DNA of 64,000 bases from Candidatus Woesearchaeota archaeon. GTDB lineage: Archaea > Nanobdellota > Nanobdellia > Woesearchaeales > UBA9642. Both the position numbers and the translations under genes were made by a program. Below the pieces are notes generated by a model. That model did not search any database. It had not been told where the DNA came from and was given only the letters and a program-made list of their open reading frames with translations. Below are positions 1 to 53,645 of this stretch, one piece after another (the stretch's first letter is position 1; the number at the start of each line of letters is the position of its first letter). The stretch covers positions 54,490 through 118,489 of the forward strand of contig BPGB01000001.1 of the NCBI GenBank assembly GCA_026002815.1, written 5' to 3'.

Positions 1-6
1 AACACT

Positions 7-78
7 TGTTAATTATTTTTAACATATTCAAGAAAAATCTAAATATTTAAATATTAATGTTAATTATTTTTAACATAT
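7..78 (+). promoter_or_regulatory. Two perfect 21-bp direct repeats (TGTTAATTATTTTTAACATAT at 7-27 and 58-78) flanking a TATA-like AT box (41-55). Each repeat contains TGTTAA-N6-TTAACA. Candidate operator and promoter of the first MNT-HEPN-hsdR operon.
   Basis: Read directly from the sequence. The second copy overlaps the ATG at 77. Confidence 0.5.
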
Positions 79-589
79 GTTAGATATACTTAACAATTTA
101 AAGCCTTTTTTTGAAGATAATTACAGAAAGATAAATGTTCGCGAGTATGCCAGGATTCAAAAAATAAGCCCGCCGACAGCTTCAAAAATTCTTGAAAATA
201 TGCATAAAGAAGGATTACTAAAAAAAGAAAAAGACAAGTTATACATATATTATTATCCTAATAGGGGATGCGATTTATTTATTGAATTAACAAGGATTTA
301 TTGGAAAAATGTTCTTGAAAATTGTGGTCTATTAAAAGAGCTTGAAGAAACCTTCTTGAATCCAGTAGTTATTCTTTTCGGCTCTTTGTCAAAGGCAGAA
401 GCGAAAAAGGATTCTGATATTGATTTAGCGATTTTTGCACCGTCAAAAAAAGAATTTAACAGTGAGAAATATGAAAAATTGCTAAAAAGAAAGATTCAAC
501 TTTTCATTTTTAAGAATTTGGAAGATGTTAAAAGCAAAGAATTACTTAATAATATACTAAACGGATATAAACTTAAAGGAGATTGGTGA
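77..589 (+). CDS. wHTH-fused minimal nucleotidyltransferase (MNT-type antitoxin-like), 170 aa
   Basis: N-terminal HTH-like segment NVREYARIQKISPPTASKILENMHKEGLL. NTase motif FGSLSKAEAKKDSDIDLAIF (GS...DxD). The stop lies one nt before the ATG of the HEPN gene. Confidence 0.8.
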   Translation: MLDILNNLKPFFEDNYRKINVREYARIQKISPPTASKILENMHKEGLLKKEKDKLYIYYYPNRGCDLFIELTRIYWKNVLENCGLLKELEETFLNPVVILFGSLSKAEAKKDSDIDLAIFAPSKKEFNSEKYEKLLKRKIQLFIFKNLEDVKSKELLNNILNGYKLKGDW

Positions 590-590
590 A

Positions 591-992
591 ATGGATTGGA
601 GCGAATGTATAGAAGAAAAGATAGTAAAAGAAGCAAAAGCTGATAAAAATCTTGCTTTATCATTGAAAGAAATTGCGAAGATAAAAATTAAATCAGCAGA
701 TAGTTTATCAGAAGAATTTTTCATAAGTAAAATTTCTTTATTGTATGATGCATTAAGAGAAATTCTAGAAGCAATAGCTATTCAAAAAGGATTTAAAATT
801 TATAATCACGAGTGCTATGCCGCATTTCTTAAGGAAATACTAAAAATGCCAGATGAAGCAAATATTTTTGATAATTTAAGAAAAACGAGAAATGCAATAA
901 ACTATTATGGAAGAAAACTTGACAAAGAAGAAAGTTTAGAGATTATAAAAAAAATAAAACAATTAATAGAAAAATTAAAAGATTTAGCATGA
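591..992 (+). CDS. HEPN-domain protein (partner of MNT), 133 aa
   Basis: All-helical small protein directly after the MNT gene. LRKTRNAINYYG sits where the HEPN R-x4-6-H motif is expected, but ends in Tyr. Its stop overlaps the hsdR ATG (ATGA at 989-992). Confidence 0.7.
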   Translation: MDWSECIEEKIVKEAKADKNLALSLKEIAKIKIKSADSLSEEFFISKISLLYDALREILEAIAIQKGFKIYNHECYAAFLKEILKMPDEANIFDNLRKTRNAINYYGRKLDKEESLEIIKKIKQLIEKLKDLA

Positions 993-3900
993 AAAAAGCA
1001 ATTTCAGAATCAGAAGTTGAAGAAGCAGCACTTGATATTCTGCGAGAATTAGGCTGGACTATTCTTCATGGTCCTGACATTTCCGAAGGTGGAAGTAATG
1101 AAGAAAGAAAATATAGTGAAGTTGTTTTAGTGAATAGATTAAGAAATGCGCTTGAAAGAATCAATAAAGACATTCCAGAAGAAGCGATACAAGAAGCAAT
1201 AAAAAAAGTTCTCAGGACAGACAGCCAGAACCAAATCATCAACAACCAACAATTCCATAAAATGGTTGTTAATGGCGTTGATGTTGAATACAAAAAGAAT
1301 GGGGAAATAAAAAATGATAAAATCTGGCTTTTTGATTTTAAGAATATAAAAAATAATGAGTTTCTTGCAGTAAAACCAATTTACAATCATTGAAGAAAGA
1401 AAAAACAGAAGACCGGACATAATCTTATTTGTTAATGGTTTGCCATTAGTTTTAATAGAATTAAAGAATCCTGCTGATGAGAATGCAACAATCTGGTCAG
1501 CATTTAATCAGTTTGAAACATATAAACAGCAGATTCCATCAGTTTTCAGGTTTAATGAAATTCTTGTAATAAGTGACGGGTTAGAAGCAAGAGCCGGAAC
1601 CCTTACAAGCAATAAAGAAAGATTTACGCCATGGAAGACTATTGATGGAAAGAAGATGCCAAAAACTGCTCCTCAACTAGAAATTTTACTAAAGGGTATG
1701 TTAAATAAAGAGGTCTTAATGGATTTGATCAGGCATTTCATTGTTTTTGAAATAGATAAAGACAAGAGAGAAGGAAGTGTAAAAATAATAAAGAAAATAG
1801 CTGCATATCATCAATATAATGCAGTAAACAAAGCAGTGCAATCAACAATAAACGCTACAAAAAAAGATAAAAGAGCAGGAGTTGTCTGGCACACGCAAGG
1901 ATCTGGAAAAAGTTTAATAATGGTATTTTATACAGGAAAGTTGGTTTTACAGCCAGAACTGGAAAACCCGACAATAATTCTATTAACAGACAGGAATGAT
2001 TTAGATGATCAATTATTTGGAACTTTTAGCAGATGCCACGAACTGCTAAGGCAGGAGCCAAAACAAGCAGAATCAAGAGATGAAATAAAAGAATTGCTTA
2101 AAGTTTCATCCGGAGGAATAATATTTACAACAATACAAAAATTTTTGCCAGAAGAAAAAGGTAAAAAATATCCCCTTCTATCTGAAAGAAAAAATATTAT
2201 TGTCATAGCAGATGAAGCTCATAGAAGCCAATATGATTTTATTGACGGATTTGCAAAACATATACGGGATGCTCTCCCAAACGCCTCGTTTATTGGATTT
2301 ACAGGAACACCTATAGAAAAAGCAGACAGAAGTACGCCGGCAGTTTTTGGGAAATATGTTGATGTTTATGATGTTGAGCAGGCAGTAGAGGATGAAGTGA
2401 CTGTAAGGATTTTCTATGAAAGCAGATTAGCAAAACTAGAATTAAAACCAGAAGAAAGACCTAAAATAGATAAGGATTTTGAAGAAGTTACTGAAGGTGA
2501 AGAGACAGAACATAAAGAAAAACTAAAAAGCAAATGGGCAAGACTTGAAAAAATTGTAGGAAGCCCAAATAGAATCAAGAGAATAGCAAAAGATATAGTC
2601 AATCATTGGGAAGAAAGACTAAATGTTCTTGACGGAAAAGCAATGATTGTCTGCATGAGCAGGAGAATCTGCATAGATTTGCATAATGAAATCATCAAAT
2701 TAAAGCCAGAATGGTATAATAAAGATGATGATAAGGGAGTTTTAAAAGTGATAATGACCGGCTCTGCTTCTGATCCAGTTGACTGGCAGGAACATATAAG
2801 AACAAAAGACAGAAGAAAAGCCATTGGGGAAAGAATGAAGGATGCTTCTGACCCTCTAAAAATAGTTATTGTCAGGGATATGTGGCTTACCGGATTTGAT
2901 GTTCCGTCTTTACACACAATGTATATTGACAAGCCAATGAGAGGGCATGGTTTAATGCAAGCAATCGCCAGAGTAAACAGGGTTTTTAAAGATAAACCTG
3001 GTGGATTAATAGTAGATTATATTGGGATTGCTTATGAATTAAAGAAAGCACTATCTGAATATACTGCTGGAGATCGGAAAGAGACAGGAATACCACAAGA
3101 AGAAGCAGTTGCTCTTATGCAAGAAAAATACGAGATTGTGTGTGGTTTATTCCATAAATTCAATTATAAAAAATTCTTTACTGCAACAACCAAAGACAAG
3201 ATGAAAATAATTGCAGATGCTATAGAACATATTTTGAAGCAAGAAAAAGGAAAAGAAAGATTCTTAAAATATGTAAGTGAGCTGTCAAAAGCCTTCGCTC
3301 TTGCTGTTCCTCACGAAGAAGCTATCAAAATAAGAGATAATGTTGGATTTTTCCAGGTGGTAAGGTCAGCAATTGCTAAGAATACTTCAACAAAAATATC
3401 AGATAGAGAGGATTTAGAAACAGCAATAAAACAAATTATCTCAAAAGCAATAGTCTCGGATAGAGTTATAGATATTTTTGAAGCTGCAGGTCTAAAAAAG
3501 CCAGACATTTCAATTTTATCAGAAGAATTTTTGGAAGAAGTCAAAAACATGCCTCAAAAGAATCTTGCATTTGAAATGCTGAAAAAACTTCTCAATGATG
3601 AAATCAAAATACGTCACAAGAAAAATCTTGTTCAAGCAAGGTCGTTCGCAGAAATGTTGGATAAAGCGATTAAGGCATATACTAATAAGAATATTGAAAC
3701 CGCAGAGGTAATTGAGCAGTTGATTGAATTAGCAAAAAAGATGCAGAATGAAAATAAAAGAACCAAGGAGATGGGTCTAAGTGAAGATGAAGTCGCTTTT
3801 TATGATGCCCTAGCAGACCATGAAGGAGTTAAAGAAGTTATGGGAGATGAAAAATTAATGATTATAGCAAGAGAACTTGTTGAAAGTATACACAACTCTG

Positions 3901-4070
3901 TAACAATTGATTGGACTATGAGGGAGAATGTCCAAGCAGAGATGAGAGTTAAAGTCAAGAAAATTCTAAGAAAATATGGTTATCCTCCAGATAAACAGCA
4001 GAAAGCAGCGGACACAGTTTTAGAACAGGCAAAATTATTATGTAAAGATTGGGCAGAGGCACAATCTTAA
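989..4070 (+). pseudogene. hsdR: Type I restriction enzyme R subunit (HsdR), interrupted by a +1 frameshift in the A4 run at 1372-1375
   Basis: ORF 989-1393 is a typical HsdR N-terminus. The next frame is open from 1374 and reads [32 protein letters not shown] (PD-(D/E)xK core). SF2 motifs follow: [26 protein letters not shown]. The C-terminal region is HsdR-type ([12 protein letters not shown]). Confidence 0.85.
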
Positions 4071-4098
4071 GTTATTTTCTTATATTTAATTGTTTCGT

Positions 4099-4416
4099 CG
4101 CCACCTCCGTTATAGTTAAAATTGTCTCCTATCAGTTCGTGCCACTAAAATTTAATTGCATAGAACATCGCGATTAAGAGAAGTCGTGAGCGTAGCGAAA
4201 GATTTGGGTGAAGCGAGGTGCAACCGAGTGGAGTCGGCTAAGCCCTGTTATACGCGTTTTCTCGAACAGAAAACCGAGGTTTAGTGCAACTTCCCGAAGG
4301 GAAACCGAAGAGTTAAATTTTAGTGGCAATCGTTCAATAAAGTGAAAACAGTAAGACATCGAGAACATATATCAAGGAGACAATTTTAATCAGTCGTTTC
4401 GTTAGGGAGAGGGGCG
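4099..4416 (+). ncRNA. Candidate structured non-coding element A (about 318 nt, GC-enriched), immediately 3' of hsdR
   Basis: Three nested long-range complementarities. First, 4099-4107 pairs with 4409-4416 (8 bp plus a bulge). Second, 4116-4130 pairs with 4375-4389 (15 bp, perfect). Third, 4141-4155 pairs with 4313-4327 (15 bp, perfect). There is also an internal GAA-loop hairpin at 4291-4303. Strand assignment is tentative. Confidence 0.45.
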
Positions 4417-4444
4417 TGTTTTTGGTTCTTTTTTTGAAAAAGAA
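4417..4444 (+). terminator. Oligo-T tracts (T5 at 4419-4423, T7 at 4429-4435) plus hairpin TTCTTTTT-TTG-AAAAAGAA (4426-4444). Candidate archaeal termination signal after element A.
   Basis: Read directly. Archaeal intrinsic termination uses oligo-T runs. Confidence 0.35.
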
Positions 4445-4477
4445 GGCAGTTTGAAGGGGGGCGTCGTTTCAGTAATA

Positions 4478-4486
4478 TTTATAAAG
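4478..4486 (+). promoter_or_regulatory. TATA-like box TTTATAAAG about 30 nt upstream of the RHH ATG
   Basis: AT box at the expected distance for a short-leader or leaderless archaeal transcript. Confidence 0.35.
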
Positions 4487-4514
4487 CTGTGTAAATATTT
4501 ATTATTAGATTACT

Positions 4515-4661
4515 ATGGGAAGCAAGAACATAACTCTAAAAGTTGATGAAAAACTATACAATGCCTATAAGGAATACTGCAAAAAGAAAGGCTTAATTAT
4601 ATCAAGGCAGTTTGAGATTTTCGTTGAGCAACAACTTAAAAAAAGTGATAAAAATGGATAA
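4515..4661 (+). CDS. Small ribbon-helix-helix (CopG/Arc-like) protein, 48 aa. Absent from the ORF track because it is under 60 aa.
   Basis: Own translation: MGSKNITLKVDEKLYNAYKEYCKKKGLIISRQFEIFVEQQLKKSDKNG. The pattern is beta-strand (ITLKVD), helix, G, helix. The ORF overlaps the methyltransferase ATG (4654) by 8 nt. Confidence 0.6.
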   Translation: MGSKNITLKVDEKLYNAYKEYCKKKGLIISRQFEIFVEQQLKKSDKNG

Positions 4662-7600
4662 TGATTTAGAATTAAGAAAGGAGATACATGAAAATTTAAG
4701 AAAAATTAAGACAGCAAAGGATATTTTTAGCCTGCTTAAGAAATTAAACTATCCTGAAAATGTGGTTTTTGATATATCCTCAAAAAGAAAAAAATCTACT
4801 TTTGACTTCAAAAAAGAAGATGAACAAAGAATAAAAGAAATTTATTCTGTATTAAGTTTTGATGAAAAGCTTCATGTTTTTCTCTTGGAAGTCTCAACTT
4901 TAACACCCTCTTTTATAAGGTCTGTAACAAGCACATTTGATAAGCAATATCTTCATTTTTTATTGATATTTTCTTCTGACTATTCAGAAATTGTTTTTGT
5001 CTTTCCCAATCGTGAAAAAATCGAGGCTGGAAAACACAAACTGAAACTAACAAAACTAATAGTGAACAGGGATGAAATCCATTATACAGATATTCAAACA
5101 CTCTCAAATATATCTTACGAAGGGGAAGGTAATTGGAGGGACATCTGGAGAAAATGGAAAAAAGCATTCAGCGTTGAGAGAGTAACAGAGGATTTCTTTG
5201 AAGATTATAAAAACATCTTTTTTACATTAAGGAACGAGTTGAACAAGCAAAGTGTTCCTATAAAAGAATCTCACGAGTTTACCTTGCAATTTCTAAACAG
5301 GATAATGTTCATTTATTTCATTTCAAAAAAGAAGTGGCTGGAGCATCCCAGATTTATGGAATGGGTTTGGACTGCTTATAAGAAGCTGAATAAATATGGA
5401 TCTGATGAGTTTTACGAAAAATGGCTTAGACAGATTTTCTTTAAAGCGTTTAACAACCGCTCCAATGAATTGGCAGGATTGCCAGGAGATATTATAAAAG
5501 CAATATCAAATTCTCCTTATTTAAATGGAGGACTATTCAGAGAAAATGGATTGGATAACCTTAAAATCAAAATCAGCGATAAGATGTTTGAGAGAATCTT
5601 TGAGTTCTTTGAGAAATACAATTTTACAATAAAAGAAGACATGCCTCTTGAGCAAGAGGTTGCGGTTGATCCTCAAATGATTGGATATGTTTATGAATCT
5701 TTGGCTAATGTCGCTGAAGAGATTTATGATAGAAATGATTTAGGTATATTCTATACTCCTAGAGTTGAAGTGGATTTCATGTGTAGGCGTTCCTTGGTTG
5801 AGTATCTTTCAAAGCACCTACCAGAAGTTCCAAAAGAGAAATTTTATCATCTGATATTTGATTTGCCTGAAGAGAAGGAAAAAATAGAAAAATGGTTTAG
5901 TGAAAATAATTTATGTAGTAAATTAGAAGAAATTTTAGATGAACTATCTGTTGTTGATCCTGCTTGTGGCTCAGGTGCTTTTTTGGTTGGAATGCTAAAT
6001 GTTCTTGCAGAAGTTTATAGATCAATCAACAAACACTTGAATAGAAATTTAACGGATTTTCAATTGAAAAATAGGATTATCCAGTATTCGCTTTATGGAG
6101 TTGATGTAATGACTTGGGCAATACATGCTGCAGAGCTAAGACTATGGCTTCAATTAATTGTCGAAACTGAATTCAAAAAAGAAGAGTTAAGAAAACATCC
6201 TTTACTGCCAAACTTGAACCTTAATTTAAGGATTGGAGATTCATTAGTTCAAGAAATTGGCGGCATTAGTTTTAATTTAAAAACTAATAACTTGAAACCT
6301 CATTTGAAAAAGAAGCTTGAAGACCTGAAACAAGAGAAAAGAAAATACTTTGAAAATTCTCCAACAGCAAAATTCAAAACACCTGAAGAAGTCAAAGCAG
6401 AAGAGATAAGGCTTTTTGAAGAGATTATTGATGAAAGGATTGAGAGTTTAGAAACTGATATTGAAGTTTTAGAAAATTCTGAAAAGAAAAAAGAAAAACA
6501 AACAGGACTCTTTGGCTCAGAAATAAATATTGAAGCAAAAAACATAAAAAAAGAAAAAGAGGAGATTGAAAAAATTGAAAAGAAAATACAAGATAATAAG
6601 AAAGAAATTGAAAATTTAAAAAAAGTAAAAGAATTGCTTAAAGAACCAGATAAAAAACCATTTGTATGGGATATTGATTTTGCTGAAATATTTGCCGAGA
6701 AAAATGGTTTTGATATTGTTATAGGAAATCCGCCTTATGTCAGGCAGGAAATGATTTCCCCGCCAAATAAGTTAAAGTCAGAAGTTACACTTGAAGACAG
6801 AAGAGAGTATAAAGAAAAATTGATTAATTCTGTAAAAAAGGTTTTTCCTGTTGTAGAGAATATTGACAAGAAAAGCGATTACTACATTTATTTTTATTTT
6901 CATGGTTTAGGTTTATTGAATGAAAAAGGAACATTCTGCTTTATCACAAGCAATTCTTGGCTTGATGTTGGTTATGGAAAAGAGTTGCAGGAATTTCTAT
7001 GCAAGTATGTTCCAATTTTAGGAATTTATGACAATCCAAAAAGAAGTTTTGCACATGCAGATGTTAACACAATAATTGCTTTATTTGGTGCTCCAAAGTT
7101 TGCGGAAGAAAAAACAATTCATGGTTTTAAGATTTCAGGAAATGAAAATAACTGGCCAATGCTAAATCATACTGCAAAGTTTGTAATGTTCAAGAAGCCA
7201 TTTGAAGAAGTTGTTAATTCAAAAAATCTTATTGAAATTGAAAACATTAAAGTTGAAACAAAAGGCGAAGGTATTACAGAATTAGTGAAAAATGTTAAAA
7301 AAACAGATGATTACAGATGTTTTCCAATATTACAAGGTGATTTGTTAGAAGATGGCTGGGAATATCCTGAAAATTATCAAAAAGAAAAAGGCAGATTTAA
7401 AGCTGGTAGTTATGAAGGCAACAAATGGGGCGGTAAATTTTTAAGAGCACCAGATATTTTTTATACGATTTTGGAGAAGGGTAAAGGAAAACTTGTAAGA
7501 TTAGGAGATATTGCTGAAGTGCGTCGTGGCTTTACGACAGGAGCGAATGAGTTTTTTTATCTTCCCAGCAAGTATTTTGATATAAAAGAAGAAGAAAAAT

Positions 7601-8412: not shown

Positions 8413-8413
8413 A

Positions 8414-10060
8414 ATGAGCGAAGAAAAAAATAGATCAAAATCTCATGTTATCTTTAGCACAAGAGATAAACTAAATTCCGATAGCGAATACTATGGTAAA
8501 ATATACAAGATAAAGAATCTTACTAAGACAATCGTTCTCGTTGCTTCCTTTCTTCTAGTATTAATGCTAGCTATTTTTGTGTTTAATTCTAATCCTGATT
8601 TTAGTAATAAAGATAATTTAAGATATTTATTTAGTACATCTGCACAAACACTTGGAGCAATTTTTGGAATAATAATAACAATTACCTTTATGATTATACA
8701 AGTGAATATTCAAAAATACGGGCAGAAAATTTATTCATTCTTAATTAAAAGTAGATTTATTTTATTTTATACATTTTTGGCTTTATTATCCATATTACTT
8801 TCGTTAGTGTCTATACTATTTGTAGAGAAAATATCTCTATTTAAAATAGTGCTTGACAATTTTAGTTTTACTTTTTTAACATCGTACTTACACATTTTTA
8901 CATCTGTTCTTACAGGAATGTCTTTGATTTTTTTACCTTATTTTATCTACGAATTAATCTCCAAATTAAACATCATTAATTATCTAAGATACCTTTATGA
9001 AAACACAGTTGATGCGATCAACAAAAAAAATATAGATAAAGTTGAAAATAATCTATCTTTGATATTGGGCGTATTAAATAACGGTATTAGAGAAAGAGAT
9101 AGAGATACAATAAAGGAAGGTATTGAAACTTCACACGATTTGCTAAAATTTGCGATATGTAATCAGAAAGCAATGAATGATCTATTATTGCACGCTGGGA
9201 AACCAGAAGGAATGTTTAATTATAGGAGTAATTGGTTTGAAGATGAAATTTTGAGTAGTCTCGAGTCTTCTTTTAAAATATTATTAGAAACACGACAATA
9301 TAATTCTGCGAGATATTTAGTCAAAGGACTTAACTCATGTGCAACCGAAACACTGAATTTTGATTACCATGAGAGTATAAGAGGAAGAATAATAAAAACA
9401 TATCAAAAGTTTATTCTCCTATCATTAAAGGAAAATGAGTTACAAGAAGAAATTATACAAGAATTTAGGTTATTTTTTGAAAGATCCCTTTGTTTAGAAA
9501 AATCTGATTTTAGATTAATCATTAATGACTTGTTTGAAGAAACGTTCGTCATTGAATTGATAAAGAATCGTCCAGATATTATTGAAAAATTGATTTCAAC
9601 TTACTTTTATACCATAAAAAGAGGAATTCCATTTTGCAAGATAGATAATGAGAATGTAGTCGCTTTAGTTGAAGAAATAGGTAGCATAGTATCTATTTGT
9701 AATAAGTTAAAGCAAATAAAAGCTATTGACTCACGTCTCGCCTTATTTTTTAGTAATAAACTAAATGAACAAATCTCTGACATCGCATACCTCTTATCAT
9801 TATTCGTATTTTCAAAAAAAGATATAGAAAACTCAAAAAGGTGTAGGAAAATAATTAGAAGTTTTTTAAACGTAAACTCCATGAATAAAAAAATAGAAAA
9901 AATCGTAACAGATAAAAACGACTGGAAACCACGATTTAACTATTTGGTTCACCATCTATTTACTGAGATCAAAGAAGATAATGGAAAAACTGATTTTATT
10001 TTCAAACATAAAAATGTAATTAAACTTGCAAAAAATTTTAATAAAATGACGGTGAAATGA
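8414..10060 (+). CDS. Multi-pass membrane protein (4-5 N-terminal TM helices plus about 330-aa helical soluble domain), possibly DUF2254-like
   Basis: ATG 8414 lies one nt after the methyltransferase stop. TM segments include TIVLVASFLLVLMLAIFVF, LGAIFGIIITITFMIIQV, FILFYTFLALLSILLSLVSILFV and FTSVLTGMSLIFLPYFIY. The family assignment is from memory only. Confidence 0.55.
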   Translation: MSEEKNRSKSHVIFSTRDKLNSDSEYYGKIYKIKNLTKTIVLVASFLLVLMLAIFVFNSNPDFSNKDNLRYLFSTSAQTLGAIFGIIITITFMIIQVNIQKYGQKIYSFLIKSRFILFYTFLALLSILLSLVSILFVEKISLFKIVLDNFSFTFLTSYLHIFTSVLTGMSLIFLPYFIYELISKLNIINYLRYLYENTVDAINKKNIDKVENNLSLILGVLNNGIRERDRDTIKEGIETSHDLLKFAICNQKAMNDLLLHAGKPEGMFNYRSNWFEDEILSSLESSFKILLETRQYNSARYLVKGLNSCATETLNFDYHESIRGRIIKTYQKFILLSLKENELQEEIIQEFRLFFERSLCLEKSDFRLIINDLFEETFVIELIKNRPDIIEKLISTYFYTIKRGIPFCKIDNENVVALVEEIGSIVSICNKLKQIKAIDSRLALFFSNKLNEQISDIAYLLSLFVFSKKDIENSKRCRKIIRSFLNVNSMNKKIEKIVTDKNDWKPRFNYLVHHLFTEIKEDNGKTDFIFKHKNVIKLAKNFNKMTVK

Positions 10061-11214
10061 TGTCAAAAAAATCAATCACTGTTGAGGTGAATCCAGAAGT
10101 CTTAAAGTGGCTTAGGGAAAGATCTGGGTGGAAGATAGAAGAAGTAAGCAAAAGGCTAAGTACTACTGTTGAGAATGTAACTGAATTTGAAGCTGGAGGA
10201 AAATCACCTACACTAACACAATTGAAGATTTTATCAGGATTGTTTAAATGTCCATTGGCTGCTTTCTTTTTATCTGAGCCAAAAGAAGAAAAGCCTTTGC
10301 CTAAAGATTACAGATTTCTACCGGATAAAACAAATATCTTTGATAAAAAAACAATTTTGGCAATAAAAAAAGCAAGAGACTTGCAAAAGATAGGCAAAGA
10401 ACTTTCATTAAACATAAGATATGAAACAAAAACAAAAGTTGAGAAGGTCAAACTATCTGAAAATCCTGATTTGATTGCAAAAAGATATAGAGAACTATTC
10501 AATCTTGACTTTGAGAAGCAAGCAAAATTCAAGGATGCTTATAAGCTATTTAATTATCTCAGGGATGTTCTTGAAAATATAAATATTCTAGTTTTTCAGT
10601 TTTCAATGCCAATTGAAGATGCAAGAGGCTTCACACTAACAGATGAGTCGCCTGCTGTTATTGTTGTAAACTCCAGAGACAGCATTGAAGCAAGACTATT
10701 TACTCTCATGCATGAATTTGGACATATTATTCTGGGAGAAACAGTTATAGATATACCTGAAAGGTCGCTGGCAATCAGAGATAATATTGAAAGATGGTGC
10801 AATTCATTCGCCTCTTCCTTCCTATTGCCTACACAAGTAGCAAAAGAGATATTTAAAGAAAAACAAACAAAATTAACTGATACACAAACATTAAACAACC
10901 TATCTAGAAAATACAAGGTAAGCAAAGCAGTGCTTCTAATCAAAATGCTTAACTTAGGATATATCTCGCAATCGGATTTTGACGCTGTTGTTGAAAGATA
11001 TGTTCCAAAAGAAACCGAAAAAAAAGTTGAGCGAGAAAAAAAAGGAATAAGCTTAGCTTCTGATACGAGGTGCCTTTCTGAGATGGGCAACAAATTCATT
11101 TCACTTGTTGCAAACAACTTTGACAATAATTTCATAACATACTCAGATGCTTTGAGTTATCTATCAATTAAATCGAAGAACTTCGAGAAGGTTCTAGCTA
11201 AGGCGAGAAAATGA
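10057..11214 (+). CDS. XRE-type HTH fused to ImmA/IrrE (COG2856) zinc metallopeptidase, 385 aa
   Basis: N-terminal HTH region is LKWLRERSGWKIEEVSKRLSTTVENVTEFEAGGKSPTLTQLKILSGLF. HExxH motif is LMHEFGHIILGE. The ATGA start overlaps the upstream stop. Confidence 0.8.
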   Translation: MMSKKSITVEVNPEVLKWLRERSGWKIEEVSKRLSTTVENVTEFEAGGKSPTLTQLKILSGLFKCPLAAFFLSEPKEEKPLPKDYRFLPDKTNIFDKKTILAIKKARDLQKIGKELSLNIRYETKTKVEKVKLSENPDLIAKRYRELFNLDFEKQAKFKDAYKLFNYLRDVLENINILVFQFSMPIEDARGFTLTDESPAVIVVNSRDSIEARLFTLMHEFGHIILGETVIDIPERSLAIRDNIERWCNSFASSFLLPTQVAKEIFKEKQTKLTDTQTLNNLSRKYKVSKAVLLIKMLNLGYISQSDFDAVVERYVPKETEKKVEREKKGISLASDTRCLSEMGNKFISLVANNFDNNFITYSDALSYLSIKSKNFEKVLAKARK

Positions 11215-11702
11215 CATCAAATTGCTATATCATAGATTCATCGTCATTGATAGAGTTAAACAGGCACAACCCAATTGATGTGTTCCCTAGTGTATGGAAA
11301 AATATGGAGTCATTAGTTAACAAAAGTTTGCTTATAGCACCTAAAGAAGTACTTAATGAAATAAAAAAAAAAGACGATCAGTTAGCAAAATGGGCCAAGA
11401 AACAAAACAATCTTTTTAAGGATCCGACACCAAAACAAATAGAAATACTAAAGGATATATTGAAAAACTATCCTGCATTGGTAAAACTAGATAGGAAATA
11501 CAATGCTGATGCATGGGTTATTGCATTAGCCATTGAAATGGCTTCGGGTTCACAAAAAACATTATTACCTATAAAAAGAATAGTCGTAACAGAAGAAAAA
11601 TTAAGGGGAAATAAGATTAAAATACCTCTTGTTTGTCAAAAATATAGTATAGAAACGATCGACATCATAGACATGTTTAGAATAGAAGGATGGAAGTTTT
11701 AA
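11211..11702 (+). CDS. DUF4411-like PIN-fold protein (usual partner of ImmA/IrrE peptidases), 163 aa
   Basis: N-terminal YIIDSSSLIEL is a PIN-like acidic motif. Size and position directly after a COG2856 gene fit the known pairing. ATGA overlap with the upstream gene. Confidence 0.6.
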   Translation: MTSNCYIIDSSSLIELNRHNPIDVFPSVWKNMESLVNKSLLIAPKEVLNEIKKKDDQLAKWAKKQNNLFKDPTPKQIEILKDILKNYPALVKLDRKYNADAWVIALAIEMASGSQKTLLPIKRIVVTEEKLRGNKIKIPLVCQKYSIETIDIIDMFRIEGWKF

Positions 11703-11778
11703 AAAGTAGAAACTCTTTGGATTATATTAATAACATTTATCATCAGAAACACGATTAAAGCTCATCCAAACAAAAACA

Positions 11779-11815
11779 TTTAAATATATGGTAATACAAC
11801 CATAATATTATGGTA
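11779..11815 (+). promoter_or_regulatory. TATA-like box TTTAAATATA, palindrome ATGGT-N6-ACCAT (11788-11803) and a repeated ATGGTA at the start codon. Candidate operator of the second MNT-HEPN cassette.
   Basis: Read directly from the sequence. Confidence 0.4.
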
Positions 11816-12385
11816 AAAAACCATAGCAAACTTATAAGAACATTATTAGAAAACCAAGATAAAGAACTTAACATATTAGATTTATCCAGATATTCTAAAA
11901 TTGACTACAAAAATGTTTACAACATCATTAAGGATTTAGAAAAAGAAGGTTTAGTTGAAACAAATGTCTTTGGGAAAACAAAAAGAGTTATTCTTAACAA
12001 AAAAGTTCATCCTTTGATTTTCGAAGCAGAATACGAAAGAAGAAAATACTTATTAAAAAATAAAGACTTTTTAGTTTTACAAAAAAAACTTTCCTCATTA
12101 GAATTCCCATTTATAGCATTGCTTTTCGGCTCTTATGCTAAAGGAAATCAAACTAAACATTCTGATATTGACATATTAATTATTTGTGAGGAAAAAAGAG
12201 AAAATCAAATGCAAGAAGTTTTAGATTTTTTTCCATTAAAAATCCATCCAACAATTGTTAATTTTGAAGATTTTATAAAAATGTTAAAAACAAAAGAATT
12301 CAATGTTGCAATAGAAGCAGTTAAAAATAACATAATTTTAATAGGTATAGAAGATTATTACAGGTTGTTAGAAAATGTTAAGTGA
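11810..12385 (+). CDS. wHTH-fused minimal nucleotidyltransferase (second MNT), 191 aa
   Basis: wHTH segment is LDLSRYSKIDYKNVYNIIKDLEKEGLVE. NTase motif is LLFGSYAKGNQTKHSDIDILII. Confidence 0.8.
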   Translation: MVKNHSKLIRTLLENQDKELNILDLSRYSKIDYKNVYNIIKDLEKEGLVETNVFGKTKRVILNKKVHPLIFEAEYERRKYLLKNKDFLVLQKKLSSLEFPFIALLFGSYAKGNQTKHSDIDILIICEEKRENQMQEVLDFFPLKIHPTIVNFEDFIKMLKTKEFNVAIEAVKNNIILIGIEDYYRLLENVK

Positions 12386-12902
12386 AAAAAGAATAAAAGA
12401 AGCTGAAAGTAATGTGAATAAATATTTGAAAGAAGGGCTTTTGAAAAAATCAGATTTTAATAAACAAATTTTAGATATATTAAAGAAAAACGCAGATGAA
12501 AGTTTGGAAGTTGCAATTTTCCTTAACAAAAATAACAAATCCTCTCTTTGGATTATTGTAGTTTCATATTATTCTATGTTTTATTTGGCAAATGCTTTAT
12601 TGTACAGATTAGGTTATAAAGTTGGAGACAAAATTGCGCATAAAGTAACAGCAGATGCATTAATGATTTTTGCAAGAGAAAAAATTAAAGATGCTTTAAT
12701 AGAAGGATATGAAGAAATTAGAGATGAAGCATTAGCCAAAATGAAATCAGATGAATTAATTGAATACTTTGATTTTGAAAGAAGAAAAAGAAGTTTTATT
12801 CAATACAATACACCGGAAGAAATAAAAATATCAAAAGTTAAAACTTCATTAGAAAGAGCTAAAGAATTTATGTTTCAAATAAGTAAATTGCTTGAGGAAT
12901 AA
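12375..12902 (+). CDS. HEPN-domain protein (second copy), 175 aa
   Basis: Helical protein that overlaps the MNT gene by 11 nt. ERRKRSFIQYN sits at the HEPN motif position and again ends in Tyr rather than His. Its stop lies 2 nt before the PLD-SNF2 ATG. Confidence 0.65.
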   Translation: MLSEKRIKEAESNVNKYLKEGLLKKSDFNKQILDILKKNADESLEVAIFLNKNNKSSLWIIVVSYYSMFYLANALLYRLGYKVGDKIAHKVTADALMIFAREKIKDALIEGYEEIRDEALAKMKSDELIEYFDFERRKRSFIQYNTPEEIKISKVKTSLERAKEFMFQISKLLEE

Positions 12903-12904
12903 AA

Positions 12905-15900
12905 ATGCCCATACCAAAAGAAATAATAGATAACAGCGAAGGGAACAAGTTGATTAGTTTCCTGAATAACGCTTTAAAGGAAAATCCGAAGACAAAGCTT
13001 GACATAGCAACTGCTTTCTTCAACATAGAAGCCTTTGCAATGATTAAAGACAGCCTTAATGGCGTTGAAAGATTCAGGCTTCTTCTTGGCAAAGCTCCTG
13101 AAATACAGAACGAAAAAACACTTGGAGATGTTCTTTTGCAGGAAATAAGAAAAGAAGTCGAAGGCTTTGATTTGACAAAAGATTCAGATCAAACAGTAAA
13201 ATTGTTTATTGAATTCCTAAAAAGAAAAAATGTTGAAATAAGATTATTTGAGAAATTCCTTCACGGTAAGGCATATATATTTGATGATAGAATAGTTATC
13301 GGTTCTTCAAATTTTACTTCTGCAGGTTTAACAAGATATGGAGAATTAAACACTTGGCAGTTAAAATCACATGCAGATCATACAAGAAAAGAATGGTTTG
13401 AAAAATTCTGGGTAGAATCTGTTGATTTTAAAGATAAATTAATAAAACTTTTAGAAGAGTCAAGGTTTGGTAGCAAAGAATATACTCCTTACGAAGTTTA
13501 CATTAAAACCTTATACGAACTGCAAAAAGAGGATATAAAAGAAGAGCAGAAAGAGGAAAAACCAAGAGGTTTGCCAGAAACAAAGGTCAACTTAGCACAA
13601 TTCCAAGAAGATGCAATCGCAAGAATCTGGACTAGGATGAGAAAATATGGTGGCTGTATAGTTGCTGATTCTGTTGGATTGGGGAAAACTTGGATTGCTA
13701 AAAAGATTCTTGAGAAAATAGGATATTATGAAAGAAAGAATATTTTGATTATTTGTCCTGCTCAGCTAAGAGAGATGTGGAGAAAAGAATTGAAAAAAAT
13801 TGATGTTAAAGAGAACATTCTTTCACAGGAGGATTTGGCATCGGAGAAATATTTGGAAAAAGCAAAAAAAGCTTTGGGTGGACGGTTTGATAATGTTGAA
13901 TTAATTGTAGTTGATGAAAGTCACAATTTCAGAAATCCTTTGTCTAATAGATGGGAGAACTTTTTTACCTTGGTTAATGACCATATTGCCAAAAAGCAAA
14001 GACCAAAAATGCTTTTCCTTACAGCAACACCAATAAACAACACGCCTTGGGATCTATACTGGCAGATTATGCTTCTTGTACTAATGGACAGATCAGCATT
14101 TATCAAGGAAAACATTCCAGATTTGTTCAAATTCTTCAAACAGGCAAAAGAAAATCCTTCTTTATTGAATGACTTGCTAAATGAGATTTCCATAAGAAGA
14201 ACAAGAGACTACATAATAGAAAATTACCCAGATGCATTTATTATAGTTGAGTTGCCAAACGGAGAAACAAAAGAGCAAAAGATAATTTTCCCAGAAAGAG
14301 TTTTAGAAAATATCAATTATCAGTTAGATAAAGCATACAAAGGAATGTATAAGGAAATTTCTGACACAATAACAGAAAAGCTAATAATGGCGTATTATAA
14401 GATTCTGGAATACAGAAAAGAAGGTTTGAAGAGCGAAGAAGAACTACTTGCATTAGGTAGAATGATAGCCATAGGTGGAATATTTAGAACAATTCTTCTC
14501 AAGAGACTGGAGAGTAGTGTTGATGCTTTCAGAAAAAGCATATCTAATCATATAAAATTCTTAGAAAAGCTAAAAACCTATCTAAAATCTGGAAAGCTTC
14601 TTACAAAAGAAACTTATTTCAAATATTTAATGAGCCTAGATGAGGAACTGGAAGAAGAGGATTTGAAGGATATTCTTAAAGAATTCAAAATCAAAGAATA
14701 CAATGCAAATAAATTGTTTGAGGATATAGATACAGATATTAACCTGCTTAAAGTAATTTTGGAAAAAGTAAGTAAAATTACACCAGAAGAAGACTCTAAG
14801 CTCAAGGTATTGAAGGATAGACTTATAGAGTTGTCAAAAGATGGTCAGATTGTTCTATTTACTTACTATGCAGACACATTGAACTATATTTATGAAGAGA
14901 TACGACGCGATAAGAGATTTTCAAAGCTTAAAATTGAAGCCATATCTAGTTCAGGATTAACGAGTAAAAATCCGCAACAAAGAGAAAAAATAGTTGAAGA
15001 TTTCTTTTCAAAGAAAATTGATATATTATTAAGTACGGATGTGTTGTCTGAAGGACAGAATCTGCAATCTGCCAAATATTTAATAAATTACGACTTGCAT
15101 TGGAACCCTACAAGAATGATTCAAAGGGCAGGAAGGATTGACAGAATTGGCTCCCCCTACAAAAAAATATTTGTATATAATTTCTTTCCTGAAGATGAGC
15201 TCGAAGAATTATTAAAGCTTGTTGAGATTTTGCAGAATAAAATAATCGACATTGACAAATCCGTTGGTTTAGACCAGACTATACTTGGCGAAGAAATACA
15301 TCCGAAAGTATTTGGAATAATCAGGCATATTAGAAGCAAAGATGGTAAAATATTCGCAGAACTAGAGCAAGACGCTTTTGGTGGTGGGGAGAGATTTTAT
15401 CAACCTCTCAAAGACTTTTTAAAAAATAAAGGTGTAGAAGAACTTGAAAAAATGCCTTTAGGAATTTATAGTGGCCTAAAGAAAAACAAAATTTCTGCAA
15501 TATTTCTCTATTACAAATATGGAAATGACTTTCATTTCTGGTATATATACGATGTAAGTAATAGTTCAATTCTCACAAATAAGACAGATATATTGGGGTT
15601 TATAAGTTGTAAACAAAATGAAGAGAGAGTTATTCCTGACTTCTTTGAGAAGGTATACGAAGTTAATAAGATCGTAGTTGAAGATATTGAAAGAATGTAT
15701 AAAGAAATAGAATTGAGCTATACACAAGACTCAAAGTTAAAAGAACTGAGCAAATCCAGAAGCACTAAATTTGTAAAAAACATAATAAATGAAATAGAAC
15801 TTCAGATAGAATCTTATCTTAATGAATTTCCTGATGACGATTCAATAGAAAAAATCTGGGAGCCTATAAAAAACAAACTTATCTCCATCCCACAAACAAA

Positions 15901-16078
15901 AAAGAGACTCCAAAATCTAAGGAGAATATGGAGACAGTACAGAAAAGATAACGATTGGAGAAAAATGATTAAAGAATTAAGTGACTTTTTAATAGAAAAA
16001 GGAATTTTCAAGAAAGCAATTATTGAACCATTTGATAAAATGAAATTGAAATTGATTACTATTGATTTTATTTCGTAA
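12905..16078 (+). CDS. Phospholipase-D-family nuclease domain fused to an SNF2-family helicase/translocase, 1057 aa
   Basis: Single HKD motif FLHGKAYIFDDRIVIGSSNFTSAGL. SNF2 motifs are ADSVGLGKTWIA (I), VVDESHNFRN (II), LTATPINN (III), LSTDVLSEGQNLQ (V) and HWNPTRMIQRAGRIDRIG (VI). Confidence 0.85.
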   Translation: MPIPKEIIDNSEGNKLISFLNNALKENPKTKLDIATAFFNIEAFAMIKDSLNGVERFRLLLGKAPEIQNEKTLGDVLLQEIRKEVEGFDLTKDSDQTVKLFIEFLKRKNVEIRLFEKFLHGKAYIFDDRIVIGSSNFTSAGLTRYGELNTWQLKSHADHTRKEWFEKFWVESVDFKDKLIKLLEESRFGSKEYTPYEVYIKTLYELQKEDIKEEQKEEKPRGLPETKVNLAQFQEDAIARIWTRMRKYGGCIVADSVGLGKTWIAKKILEKIGYYERKNILIICPAQLREMWRKELKKIDVKENILSQEDLASEKYLEKAKKALGGRFDNVELIVVDESHNFRNPLSNRWENFFTLVNDHIAKKQRPKMLFLTATPINNTPWDLYWQIMLLVLMDRSAFIKENIPDLFKFFKQAKENPSLLNDLLNEISIRRTRDYIIENYPDAFIIVELPNGETKEQKIIFPERVLENINYQLDKAYKGMYKEISDTITEKLIMAYYKILEYRKEGLKSEEELLALGRMIAIGGIFRTILLKRLESSVDAFRKSISNHIKFLEKLKTYLKSGKLLTKETYFKYLMSLDEELEEEDLKDILKEFKIKEYNANKLFEDIDTDINLLKVILEKVSKITPEEDSKLKVLKDRLIELSKDGQIVLFTYYADTLNYIYEEIRRDKRFSKLKIEAISSSGLTSKNPQQREKIVEDFFSKKIDILLSTDVLSEGQNLQSAKYLINYDLHWNPTRMIQRAGRIDRIGSPYKKIFVYNFFPEDELEELLKLVEILQNKIIDIDKSVGLDQTILGEEIHPKVFGIIRHIRSKDGKIFAELEQDAFGGGERFYQPLKDFLKNKGVEELEKMPLGIYSGLKKNKISAIFLYYKYGNDFHFWYIYDVSNSSILTNKTDILGFISCKQNEERVIPDFFEKVYEVNKIVVEDIERMYKEIELSYTQDSKLKELSKSRSTKFVKNIINEIELQIESYLNEFPDDDSIEKIWEPIKNKLISIPQTKKRLQNLRRIWRQYRKDNDWRKMIKELSDFLIEKGIFKKAIIEPFDKMKLKLITIDFIS

Positions 16079-16107
16079 AGTTAAGACTCCCCTTCGTTTT
16101 TCGTACG

Positions 16108-16426
16108 TTCGTAAAAGCACCTGCCCGTTTCGTCAGAAAAATCTTTGGATGAAGCGAAGCGAAACCGCTTAACCAATGTTAGACTTTGTTTGCGAAGCAA
16201 ATTTAGTTATCTTTTTAGTTGTGAAGGTTAAGCGAAGGATTCGCTAGAAAAGCATAGCTTTTCTGCGCACCAAAAACCATTGGTTTTTGAGTGTTTCAGT
16301 TCCGTAAGCAAACTCCTCTCAAATTAGGGGTGGGTGGTTGGGAGGAAAGCCGAATTCTGAATTACGCCTAACATCTATTAAGCGTAATATTATTGTGTTT
16401 AATTGGAGGTTACGGTTTTTTACGAA
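16108..16426 (+). ncRNA. Candidate structured non-coding element B (about 319 nt, GC-enriched), immediately 3' of the PLD-SNF2 gene
   Basis: Nested complementarities are 16108-16116 with 16418-16426 (9 bp), 16118-16126 with 16328-16336 (9 bp including two G-U pairs on the plus strand) and 16166-16174 with 16226-16234 (9 bp). Local hairpins are at 16189-16201 (GAA loop), 16246-16264 and 16361-16387. It shares collinear sequence blocks with element A. Confidence 0.45.
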
Positions 16427-16462
16427 ATAAGTTTATAAATCTATATTTTTCATCTTATATTG

Positions 16463-16744
16463 ATGAATTATGAAGATATTCTTATGAACGAATGTAAACT
16501 TAAAGGTTATTTACAAAGGACGATACAGAAAATTATCGAAAATGCTGCTGTGAATTCAGGTATACGGAAAAGCATCACCCCACACACATTAGGGCATTCT
16601 TTTGCAACTCACCTAATAGAAAATGGTACTGATATTAGGTATATTAGGGATCTATTAGGTCATTCGGATATTAGTACTACATTAATTTATACAAAAGTTT
16701 CAAACAAGAATATATGTAAAATTAAAAGTCCATTGGATGATTAA
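16463..16744 (+). pseudogene. C-terminal fragment (about 93 aa) of a tyrosine recombinase/integrase (XerC/D-like)
   Basis: ITPHTLGHSFATHLIENGTDIRYIRDLLGHSDISTTLIYTKV matches box II (HxLRHxxAT...LLGH...Y). The N-terminal two thirds are missing and the conserved Arg is Gly. Confidence 0.75.
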
Positions 16745-29956: not shown

Positions 29957-30065
29957 GGGAGTGTAGCGCAGCTTGGATAGCGCGGCAGCCTTCTATTCAG
30001 TAAAAAATATTTTAAAAAACTGAAAAGTAAGCTGTAGGTCCGGGGTTCAAATCCTCGCACTCCCG
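29957..30065 (+). tRNA. tRNA-Arg(UCU) with a 34-nt intron at the canonical 37/38 position (intron 29996-30029)
   Basis: Folded by hand. Acceptor stem is GGGAGTG/CACTCCC and D-arm is GCGC/GCGC. Anticodon stem is GCAGC/GCTGT with loop CT-TCT-AA. T-arm is CGGGG-TTCAAAT-CCTCG. The intron contains hairpin TTCAGT...ACTGAA. Confidence 0.85.
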
Positions 30066-50594: not shown

Positions 50595-50666
50595 TGCGGG
50601 TATAGCCAAGCGGTAAGGCAGCCGCCTGCAGAGCGGCCATGCGGGGGTTCAAATCCCTCTACCCGC
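50595..50666 (+). tRNA. tRNA-Cys(GCA)
   Basis: Folded by hand. Acceptor stem is GCGGGTA/TACCCGC. Anticodon arm is GCCGC-CTGCAGA-GCGGC. T-arm is GGGGG-TTCAAAT-CCCTC. Confidence 0.88.
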
Positions 50667-50685
50667 TTAAAATTAGGAGGATAAA

Positions 50686-53320: not shown

Positions 53321-53645
53321 GTAGGGTAGTGCTTGGCTGTGGGTATCTTGCTGTAAAATGCAAGAGGCTCAGGAAAGTCCGTCCACATTAAACGGCCACA
53401 CGTGAAAGCGTGCTCGCTAATAACGAGGGCAACAGCACAGAAACGCAACCCATTACCGGTTGGAATGATTGGATATATCCTTAGGCGACTATGGATTGAT
53501 TCCTTGACGTCCCGGTATTGAGGATGAAACGGCTAGTCCTGGCTTGTGCAACTCTTGAAAGAGGCTTAGTTTAATGCCAAGAAAGTCGATTCCATGGCGT
53601 CATTGCAATGGATGACTTACAGAAGACGGCTTACAGCTACCCTAC
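53321..53645 (+). ncRNA. rnpB: RNase P RNA
   Basis: P1 pairing is GTAGGGTAG (53321) with CTACCCTAC (53637-53645). CR-I-like CAGGAAAGTCCG and CR-V-like ACAGAAGACGGCTTACAG are present. GC-rich island with a TATA-like TTTTAAAT box about 25 nt upstream. Confidence 0.88.

Follow-up and report, generated by a model that had tools for sequence, protein, structure and literature searches.

Two defence operons in a probable decayed integron-like array of a woesearchaeote, and a cross-domain family of attC-like sites

Introduction

Archaeal integrons occur mostly as clusters of attC sites lacking integron integrases (CALINs) and are rich in toxin-antitoxin (TA) and restriction-modification (R-M) cassettes (Ghaly et al. 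2022, PMC9668308). Here we compare with them the first 16.75 kb of a 64-kb stretch of DNA from a Candidatus Woesearchaeota archaeon (assembly GCA_026002815.1, contig BPGB01000001.1, positions 54,490 to 118,489; the whole stretch is referred to as the window). In this region, two pairs of genes, each encoding a minimal nucleotidyltransferase (MNT) and a HEPN-like protein, directly precede a gene for a restriction-type motor-nuclease (hsdR and PLD-SNF2, respectively), and each motor-nuclease gene is followed by a G+C-rich non-coding element (A and B). An earlier interpretation made without database searches (the sequence-only reading) had taken this arrangement for two parallel cassettes of a four-part system. 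We consider it probable that the region represents the end, next to the integrase gene, of an integron-like (CALIN-type) cassette array that has decayed and contains two large defence operons. One occupant would be a type I R-M operon, (hsdM)-hsdS-(MNT-HEPN)-hsdR, and the other an R-M-like pair of methyltransferase and PLD-SNF2 genes with a membrane protein, an ImmA/IrrE-DUF4411 module and an MNT-HEPN pair inserted between them. Elements A and B would be inter-cassette recombination sites and not RNAs of the operons, with element B additionally bearing the junction with the integrase-proximal site.

The family of sites described below resembles the attC sites of integrons and CALINs (PMC9668308) in its RYYYAAC...GTTRRRY-type boxes, its imperfect hairpin and its co-oriented arrays 3' of small open reading frames (ORFs), as well as in having a folding strand that is the sense strand of the integrase, a cargo of TA, GNAT and R-M genes, and members shared across domains. 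It differs in possessing an invariant three-way-junction arm in the variable region and in having neighbouring recombinases without the IntI additional domain; in the window, moreover, the copies have decayed, stand in reversed orientation to the genes and enclose cassettes of ~12 kb. The attCs tested in the archaeal-integron study are canonical and do not contain the 24-nt motif that elements A and B share. pdif modules and integrative mobile elements exploiting Xer recombination (IMEX) similarly have an Xer-type recombinase bordering a region that is variable and module-like, but the sites considered here are covarying hairpins and not 28-bp dif-like duplexes.

Several described defence and TA systems resemble the genes of the region. 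Type VII TA systems (HepT/MntA; PDC-M05) also have the MNT gene 5' of the HEPN gene, overlapping or abutting ORFs, a GS...DxD motif and pairs that stand alone in relatives; the window MNTs differ in carrying an N-terminal winged helix-turn-helix (wHTH), and the HEPN proteins, whose toxin role here is predicted, carry R-x4-Y rather than Rx4-6H. R-M operons with HEPN or Abi genes, such as PrrC in type I loci, likewise accommodate a HEPN-family gene between modification/specificity and restriction genes (PMC3710099, PMC3632139), whereas in the window the dyad is complete (MNT and HEPN) and has a putative operator of its own, and the same slot is used in a non-type-I system of methyltransferase and PLD-SNF2. 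Finally, the SNF2 helicase (DrmD-like), PLD nuclease (DrmC-like) and large N6-adenine methyltransferase (DrmMI/type IIG-like) recall DISARM (defence island system associated with restriction-modification), type IIG R-M and Hma-type helicase-methylase systems. We rejected an assignment to DISARM because DrmA and DrmB (DUF1998) are missing; the DrmA match reflects a shared helicase domain, PLD and SNF2 are fused, and the conserved core comprises two genes.

Results

A family of attC-like sites in bacteria and archaea

Elements A and B have a G+C content of 43% and 40%, respectively, against 29-31% in their surroundings (~31% for the region), and fold better than shuffled sequences (z-scores -3.0 and -3.5), which bears out their earlier description as structured and G+C-rich. 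They had also been called related, and this holds for a single 24-nt motif (0 chance matches in 100 shuffles), outside which the two could not be aligned. Rfam returned nothing relevant for either element at gathering thresholds or at E <= 10, blastn of element A against the PLSDB plasmids gave no match, and a full-text literature search for the motif sequence retrieved no paper.

Scanning 185,579 genomes, one per prokaryotic species, for the motif yielded 68 loci, compared with ~4 expected by chance on our own estimate. About 61 of these share flanking similarity, and the other 7, which do not, look like chance matches. The family so defined is found in Spirochaetota, Bacteroidota, Fibrobacterota, bacteria of the candidate phyla radiation (CPR) and others, and among archaea in Woese-, Pace-, Aenigm-, Nano- and Altiarchaeota and in Methanosarcinales. 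A viral element was rejected, since the scan of viral contigs gave one match.

Sites of this family begin with ..RYYYAAC-GTTYC, the 5' arm of a stem and GAAGT, and end with the 3' arm of the stem and TGTTRRRY; between the arms lie a small hairpin and then TTTGGGTGAAGCGARG...AACC. The spacers are asymmetric, with 5 nt (GTTCC) on one side and 1 nt on the other, and bulged bases appear now and then. As attC-like sites, one DNA strand would fold into a stem flanked by the AAC...GTT boxes and enclosing the small hairpin and the conserved arm TTTGGGTGA-hairpin-GAACC. Across 19 diverse copies, compensatory changes affect 8 of the 10 pairs of the outer stem (P1), all 6 of the inner hairpin (P2) and 14 of 24 pairs overall; pairing is realised in 96% of cells as against 32-43% in slid controls, and none of 500 shuffles reaches the observed score. 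This covariation is a property of the family members and does not extend to window copies A and B. The stems vary freely but the 23-nt arm is invariant, and the arm is therefore under direct selection. Non-Watson-Crick stem pairs read on the motif strand are G.T rather than A.C at 8:0 in the reliable stems and at 20:1 overall, where base composition predicts 1.3:1, and the motif strand is therefore the folding strand.

The motif strand is antisense to the flanking gene in 51 of 60 cases upstream and 49 of 61 downstream, with the site lying just 3' of an ORF, and some loci contain 2-6 co-oriented sites at a spacing of 0.6-3 kb. Complete arrays are present in a CPR bacterium (L043) and in a complete Pacearchaeota genome (L050), each consisting of a recombinase gene, a proximal (attI) site and small cassettes that each end in a site. 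Within both arrays, motif-bearing sites alternate with plain GCCTAAC-stem-GTTAGGC hairpins of the RYYYAAC-stem-GTTRRRY form. Cassette cargo among the relatives is of the kind typical of integrons and includes YoeB/YefM, PIN, GNAT, PemK/MazE and MNT-HEPN. In a Spirochaetia genome, a gene for an IS110-family transposase (DEDD_Tnp_IS110, Transposase_20) lies 14-16 nt from a motif-bearing site (L067 1082-2173, L027 5391-6482), a position that recalls the IS1111-attC elements that target attC sites.

Elements A and B as members of the family

Our first nhmmer profile contained both window copies, and the window was therefore searched again with a covariance model, R1, built without window sequence and from bacterial-type copies only. 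Over the 64 kb, R1 produced exactly two matches, one in element B (16084-16184, E = 2e-4) and one in element A (4168-4234, E = 2e-3), with scores that derive mainly from the conserved arm. Element A belongs to a DPANN sub-type that has a second conserved module, TTTAGTGCAAC...CCGAAGG; its AGAAC...GTTATAC boxes enclose a decayed stem. Element B, whose GTTAGAC box lies within a different stem, represents a sub-type found just 5' of the recombinase gene in loci L005 and L053. A layout of ~190 nt (motif, next stem, G-rich-loop hairpin and AATTACGCCTAAC box) is common to element B and the sequence 5' of the complete integrase gene in L005, and is seen again in L147 and L153. A G-rich box (GGGGYGGGTGGTYGGGRG), often forming a hairpin loop, recurs 5' of the TAAC junction boxes of sites at a distance of ~15-75 nt (window 16313-16346; L005 ~4530-4560; L017 ~1790-1830; L147 1210-1230 and 2878-2896).

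At all 58 loci of PLD-SNF2 orthologues, neither a motif match (nhmmer throughout; covariance model in 17) nor sequence similarity to A or B was found, and hsdR orthologues have either no element beside them (L074-76) or one that has diverged and lies on the other strand (L071-73). The element thus drops out as the fourth cassette part, on an observation that the sequence-only reading had itself named as telling against it. A type I operon with MNT-HEPN pairs in L071 has weak sites on both sides in the canonical antisense orientation, and looks like a cassette of ~10 kb.

Recombinase genes and cassette exchange

Element B is followed by the remnant of a tyrosine recombinase gene, a pseudogene or relic whose 94-aa fragment has the integron integrase TIGR02249 as its best NCBIfam match (positions 239-313 of 315). 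The N-terminal part of the recombinase occurs nowhere in the 64-kb window, and truncation upstream of the IntI-insertion region leaves the insertion state of this gene unreadable. Together with the decayed stem of element A, the truncated gene indicates that the array is probably inactive in cis. Of two Logan contigs from the same sequencing run, one ends at 16439 and the other begins at 16684, leaving a gap of 244 nt (16440-16683) inside the remnant; the stretch could be repeated at another place in the genome, as part of a second and perhaps complete recombinase gene, or the population could be heterogeneous there.

Recombinase genes related to the window fragment lie downstream of the site and on the motif strand in 8 of the 8 loci that have one. 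The intI gene of class 1 integrons stands in the same strand relation to the attC bottom strand. In a reverse test, with the L050 recombinase as query and loci then retrieved through its homologues, both a Nanoarchaeota population (L147-152) and a woesearchaeote (L153) proved to have strong sites (R1 50 bits) 5' of the recombinase gene and on its strand. In two members of that population, L147 and L149, the sequences agree at 99.9% as far as the TAAC box of one site, beyond which the cassettes differ (PemK-type in one, MNT-HEPN in the other). Comparison of this pair, with its breakpoint at the TAAC box, gives direct evidence that cassettes were exchanged where the crossover was predicted, in a relative rather than in the window genome. 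In L147-152, a conserved core adjoins a variable array, and the recombinase gene lies where the two meet. We infer that the sites recombine as single-stranded DNA, the folded strand acting as DNA rather than RNA.

Several observations weigh against placing the region in a decayed integron-like array. The implied cassettes measure at least 12 kb, where 0.5-1 kb is usual. Elements A and B lie on the same strand as their flanking genes, an orientation seen in ~15-20% of sites elsewhere; element A is almost without P1 pairing, and element B relies on a different, downstream stem. A strict scan of the window for RYYYAAC...GTTRRRY hairpins (regular expression plus stem) returned none, and A and B therefore cannot be called canonical attCs. 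The recombinases adjacent to family sites have no IntI-specific insertion, with both TIGR02249 and VchIntIA (2A3V) matched in two pieces that leave out profile positions 175-236 and IntI4 residues 180-237. Those of L005, L050 and L147, which are archaeal loci, are members of an XerA-type family that is archaea-wide and very conserved (63-74% identical, ~269 aa); with neighbouring recombinases that lack the additional domain, some of them XerA-type, the loci are not integrons in the strict sense. Lastly, the six contigs checked were not found in those supplements of the archaeal-integron study (PMC9668308) that were available to us.

More tentatively, A and B may represent an undescribed class of integron-like platforms, in which sites with the invariant three-way-junction arm TTTGGGTGA-hairpin-GAACC would be served by a short Xer/IntI-like enzyme without the I2 "additional domain". 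That domain is thought to be essential to single-strand attC recombination; in such a platform, the conserved arm would take over from extrahelical-base recognition. The class would be common to DPANN and other archaea, CPR bacteria, Spirochaetota, Bacteroidota and others.

The XerA-type affiliation of the L005, L050 and L147 recombinases, together with the position of the L147-152 gene at the core/array border, would also suit Xer-dependent modules of the pdif/IMEX kind, where a housekeeping XerA exchanges double-stranded dif-like sites and no single-strand system is involved. We regard this as unlikely. The sites have no 11-6-11 dif architecture; their stem sequence is free while complementarity is kept, which points to folding and not to a duplex protein-binding palindrome; the excess of G.T over A.C pairs points to one folded strand; and the bacterial recombinases of L043, L006 and L047 score best against the integron integrase VchIntIA.

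Less likely still is that the motif strand is transcribed into a structured RNA (such as an antisense RNA with a regulatory role, or a small RNA that is catalytic or mobile) in which the AAC and GTT boxes are incidental. Strong P1/P2 covariation around an invariant arm is seen in many ribozymes and riboswitch-like motifs, the motif strand tolerates G.T (as G.U) pairs, and it runs in the direction of the downstream recombinase gene, of whose leader it could form part. Against an RNA stand the absence of Rfam matches even at E <= 10, the co-oriented arrays with one site per small ORF and with end boxes (GCCTAAC and GTTAGAT/GTTAGGC) that equal the canonical integron core, the alternation of motif-less sites of the same frame with motif-bearing ones in one array, and the cassette-swap breakpoint on the TAAC box. 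GCGAAGC, moreover, is an extremely stable mini-hairpin as DNA. Hyperthermophile RNA genes and CRISPR leaders were rejected, as the homologues are DPANN and the family is widespread in mesophilic bacteria, and so was a miniature inverted-repeat transposable element, as the copies are co-oriented, occur once per ORF and beside an integrase, and have neither terminal inverted repeats nor target duplications.

MNT-HEPN pairs as passengers of two restriction systems

All six protein-coding genes of the supposed cassettes (MNT1, HEPN1, hsdR, MNT2, HEPN2 and PLD-SNF2) are real according to Pfam and PADLOC. PADLOC assigns both pairs to PDC-M05A/B (MNT1 at 4e-13; its NCBIfam MntA match, at 2.7e-8, falls under the cut-off), and Pfam detects HEPN in HEPN2 only: HEPN1 has no Pfam HEPN match, although PF05168/UPF0332 is present in some of its homologues, as it is annotated in many of those of HEPN2. 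In both MNTs, a weak winged-helix region precedes the nucleotidyltransferase domain. The canonical HEPN RNase motif Rx4-6H is absent from both HEPN proteins, and the two families conserve R-x4-Y instead (RN.INY and R.fiQY); a His is conserved at another position. The tight junctions on which the sequence-only reading rested were found as described, namely the ATGA overlap of HEPN1 and hsdR at 989-992 and the 2-nt gap between HEPN2 and PLD-SNF2 at 12902/12905; MNT2 and HEPN2 overlap by 11 nt. Palindromes are repeated at the start codon of each MNT gene, again as described, and may have a regulatory role.

The close joining of a pair to the following motor-nuclease gene recurs for the first operon. 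The order hsdM-x-hsdS-MNT-HEPN-hsdR, with the same 4-nt overlap, is found in two other archaeal lineages, where the HEPN protein is 65-69% identical to HEPN1; one of these cases, a woesearchaeote (L071, 6407-8405), has two successive MNT-HEPN-like pairs between hsdS and hsdR. The linkage is not fixed. Homologues of HEPN1 are almost all from Woese-, Pace- and Nanoarchaeota, which points to a DPANN host, and one at 60% identity belongs to an MNT-HEPN pair that stands alone. In four independent neighbourhoods of HEPN2 relatives (62-74% identity), the MNT partner and the 11-nt overlap are kept, and PLD-SNF2 follows in none of the four; the genes located 3' of these relatives encode Sec61-beta, Trm56, an AAA_14/DUF4143 ATPase and a Schlafen-like ATPase.

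Judged by gene content, therefore, MNT-HEPN is dispensable for both kinds of R-M system, and the dyads are best described as facultative, putatively self-regulated TA-like passengers (PDC-M05) in the same type of slot of two unrelated R-M-type systems. They would be autonomous, type VII-like TA modules that arrived independently between modification and restriction genes. Once there, addiction to the pair may stabilise the operon, and the restriction gene may be expressed from, and translationally coupled to, the autoregulated TA promoter; a role as an abortive-infection back-up is possible. The last idea had been put forward in the sequence-only reading; it coincides with the published hypothesis of a coupling between immunity and dormancy or suicide (Makarova et al. 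2013, PMC3632139). Nor is the arrangement as novel as had been supposed, since HEPN-T/PF05168 is already given as clustering with R-M operons in Table 1 of Anantharaman et al. (2013, PMC3710099).

The methyltransferase as partner of PLD-SNF2

The second supposed cassette had been delimited as MNT, HEPN, PLD-SNF2 and element, omitting the upstream methyltransferase gene. PADLOC assigns this protein to REase_MTase_IIG (9e-56) and also to DrmMI, and PLD-SNF2 to 'HKD+Snf2' (8e-48) and also to DrmD. We surveyed 58 metagenomic relatives of PLD-SNF2 (29-91% identity, mostly >45%), 45 of which were informative in having enough upstream sequence. A methyltransferase gene lies immediately beside PLD-SNF2 in 22 of these 45 loci, upstream with other uncharacterised ORFs intervening in 5, with ImmA/DUF4411 at the junction in 6 and with MNT-HEPN at the junction in 2 (L091 and L103); the order is reversed in 3, and in 7 a methyltransferase was not seen. 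By this synteny, the true conserved partner of PLD-SNF2 is the methyltransferase, and the unit in the window is therefore 4654-16078, with three accessory modules inserted at the junction of modification and restriction genes. The ORFs at the junctions of the relatives gave no informative family match. They are assorted (L130 2957-3760, L092 3159-3938, L097 2685-3991 and L091 1829-2515), and that of L130 has an RNNYIH stretch resembling the HEPN Rx4-6H motif.

It is accordingly very improbable that the window encodes a dedicated four-part system with MNT-HEPN as regulator or back-up of the motor-nuclease and the element as a non-coding RNA specific to the system: the tight gene junctions of both cassettes, the MNT-HEPN-hsdR synteny in two relatives, the recurrence of MNT2-HEPN2-PLD-SNF2 in L091 and L103 and the better-than-shuffled folding of A and B would agree with it, but 43 of the 45 informative PLD-SNF2 loci have no MNT-HEPN, PLD-SNF2 is missing from the four HEPN2 neighbourhoods and the elements from all 58 orthologous loci, and elsewhere the element family lies antisense between unrelated small genes.

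The type I operon and other features of the window

The gene hsdR had been read as a single gene. In the window it is split into two ORFs (989-1393 and 1440-4070) by an extra A in the A-run 1372-1375, and in the Logan read assembly DRR290133_6084 (L002) it is intact and encodes 1026 aa. The two sequences are identical at all bases of window 1-16439 except the extra A (window 1365-1395: GTAAAACC, vs GTAAACC in DRR290133_6084), which could be a homopolymer sequencing error, a recent inactivating mutation or population heterogeneity. The domain set of HsdR is complete by Pfam and PADLOC (nuclease, SF2 motor and C-terminal domains). The same assembly supplies 844 nt upstream of the window, where the C-terminus of hsdS is encoded; with hsdS just 5' of the window, the first cassette therefore amounts to a normal type I operon that the edge of the window truncates. 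The upstream stretch reaches no further than this hsdS C-terminus, and hsdM was found in the syntenic relatives L071 and L074. Codons of the conserved regions of hsdS are strikingly G+C-rich (e.g. CCGCCCCTCCCCGAGCAACGCGCCATCGCCCGC; L002 1-60 and 770-830) in a gene otherwise of 30% G+C, and these segments may be due to recombination or be of foreign origin.

Coordinates of all features are collected in Table 1. The 48-aa ORF that overlaps the methyltransferase start, for which Pfam gives no match, might encode a small regulator of the controller type acting on the methyltransferase/PLD-SNF2 system. The predicted membrane protein gave only a weak DUF2254 match in Pfam and none in PADLOC. Elsewhere in the window, Rfam identifies an archaeal RNase P RNA (53321-53645, 126 bits) and a tRNA with a 36-nt intron (29957-30065) that ARAGORN missed, and a tRNA-Cys lies at 50596-50667.

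Table 1. Features at the start of the window, in order of position.
Feature	Coordinates	Strand	Evidence and remarks
Putative operator 1	7-24, 58-75	+	Palindrome TGTTAATTATTTTTAACA, two copies; second stops 1 nt short of MNT1 ATG
wHTH-MNT 1, minimal nucleotidyltransferase, predicted antitoxin	77-589	+	Pfam NTP_transf_2 9e-9, Polbeta; weak HTH families
HEPN-like protein 1, predicted toxin	591-992	+	PADLOC PDC-M05B 4.9e-8; R-x4-Y (RNAINY) replaces Rx4-6H
hsdR, type I restriction subunit	989-4070	+	Pfam HSDR_N, SWI2_SNF2, T1R_D3, T1RH-like_C; PADLOC REase_I 1065 bits
Element A	4093-4463	+	C-rich box 4093-4115; G-rich boxes 4402-4416, 4453-4463
Element A, nested inverted repeats	4115-4129/4376-4389; 4139-4155/4313-4328	+	
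Element A, attC-like core	4160-4253	+	AGAAC box 4160-4166; conserved motif 4203-4226; GTTATAC 4247-4253
Element A, second conserved module	4254-4316	+	
48-aa ORF	4515-4661	+	Called as gene in L001/L002; 8-nt overlap with methyltransferase start
N6-adenine methyltransferase, 1252 aa, MmeI/Eco57I-type (type IIG/DrmMI-like)	4654-8412	+	Pfam MmeI_Mtase, Eco57I, M_Eco57I_C
Predicted multi-pass membrane protein, 548 aa, no known family	8411-10060	+	Between methyltransferase and PLD-SNF2
HTH-ImmA/IrrE metallopeptidase (10057-11214) and DUF4411 (11211-11702) module	10057-11702	+	Pfam Peptidase_M78, HTH_3, DUF4411; PADLOC RmrA
Putative operator 2	11788-11824	+	ATGGTAATACAACCAT and ATGGTAAAAAACCAT (ATGGT-N-ACCAT twice); second includes MNT2 ATG
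wHTH-MNT 2	11810-12385	+	Pfam Polbeta 1.8e-9, NTP_transf_2, TrmB; PADLOC PDC-M05A 9e-14
HEPN 2, UPF0332/PF05168 family	12375-12902	+	Pfam HEPN (PF05168) 9e-4; PADLOC PDC-M05B; R-x4-Y (RSFIQY)
PLD(HKD)-SNF2 helicase-nuclease, predicted restriction component	12905-16078	+	Pfam PLDc_2, SNF2-rel_dom, Helicase_C
Element B	16079-16384	+	C-rich leader 16085-16136; conserved motif 16144-16167
Element B, stem	16166-16174/16226-16234	+	Encloses GTTAGAC 16178-16184
Element B, hairpins	16243-16293; 16313-16346	+	Two hairpins in 16243-16293; G-rich-loop hairpin 16313-16346
Element B, junction box	16360-16372	+	AATTACGCCTAAC; followed by 5' half of integrase-proximal hairpin 16373-16384
Tyrosine recombinase remnant, pseudogene or relic	16460-16744	+	Pfam Phage_integrase 1.4e-18; C-terminal ~84 residues, end IKSPLDD

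Discussion

The sequence-only reading was borne out in part: its genes, junctions, palindromes and folding stand, and its undivided hsdR, its cassette limits and the general relatedness of A and B do not. Its interpretation as a four-part system is largely unsupported, and the core of that idea was already in print. The non-coding elements are the most interesting component of the region for a reason other than the one first proposed, as members of a cross-domain family of attC-like sites.

For the genes, our results show that, in two R-M-type systems unrelated to each other, small modules of a selfish or regulatory kind (MNT-HEPN, ImmA-DUF4411, further ORFs) repeatedly use the junction between modification and restriction genes as a landing pad. 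They also carry a warning, in that genes neighbouring R-M components should not be taken for obligatory parts of a system.

For the elements, the G+C-rich sequences connect an archaeal defence island to an integron-like array, and they reveal a family of sites with an invariant motif across bacteria and archaea, beside Xer/IntI-like recombinases without the integron-specific domain. If the sites and recombinases are functionally linked, this would bear on the evolution of integron integrases from Xer and on the movement of large defence operons between domains. Should they indeed constitute a platform of their own, whole defence operons of 10-12 kb could be moved by it, and many "integrase-less" CALINs may find their explanation.

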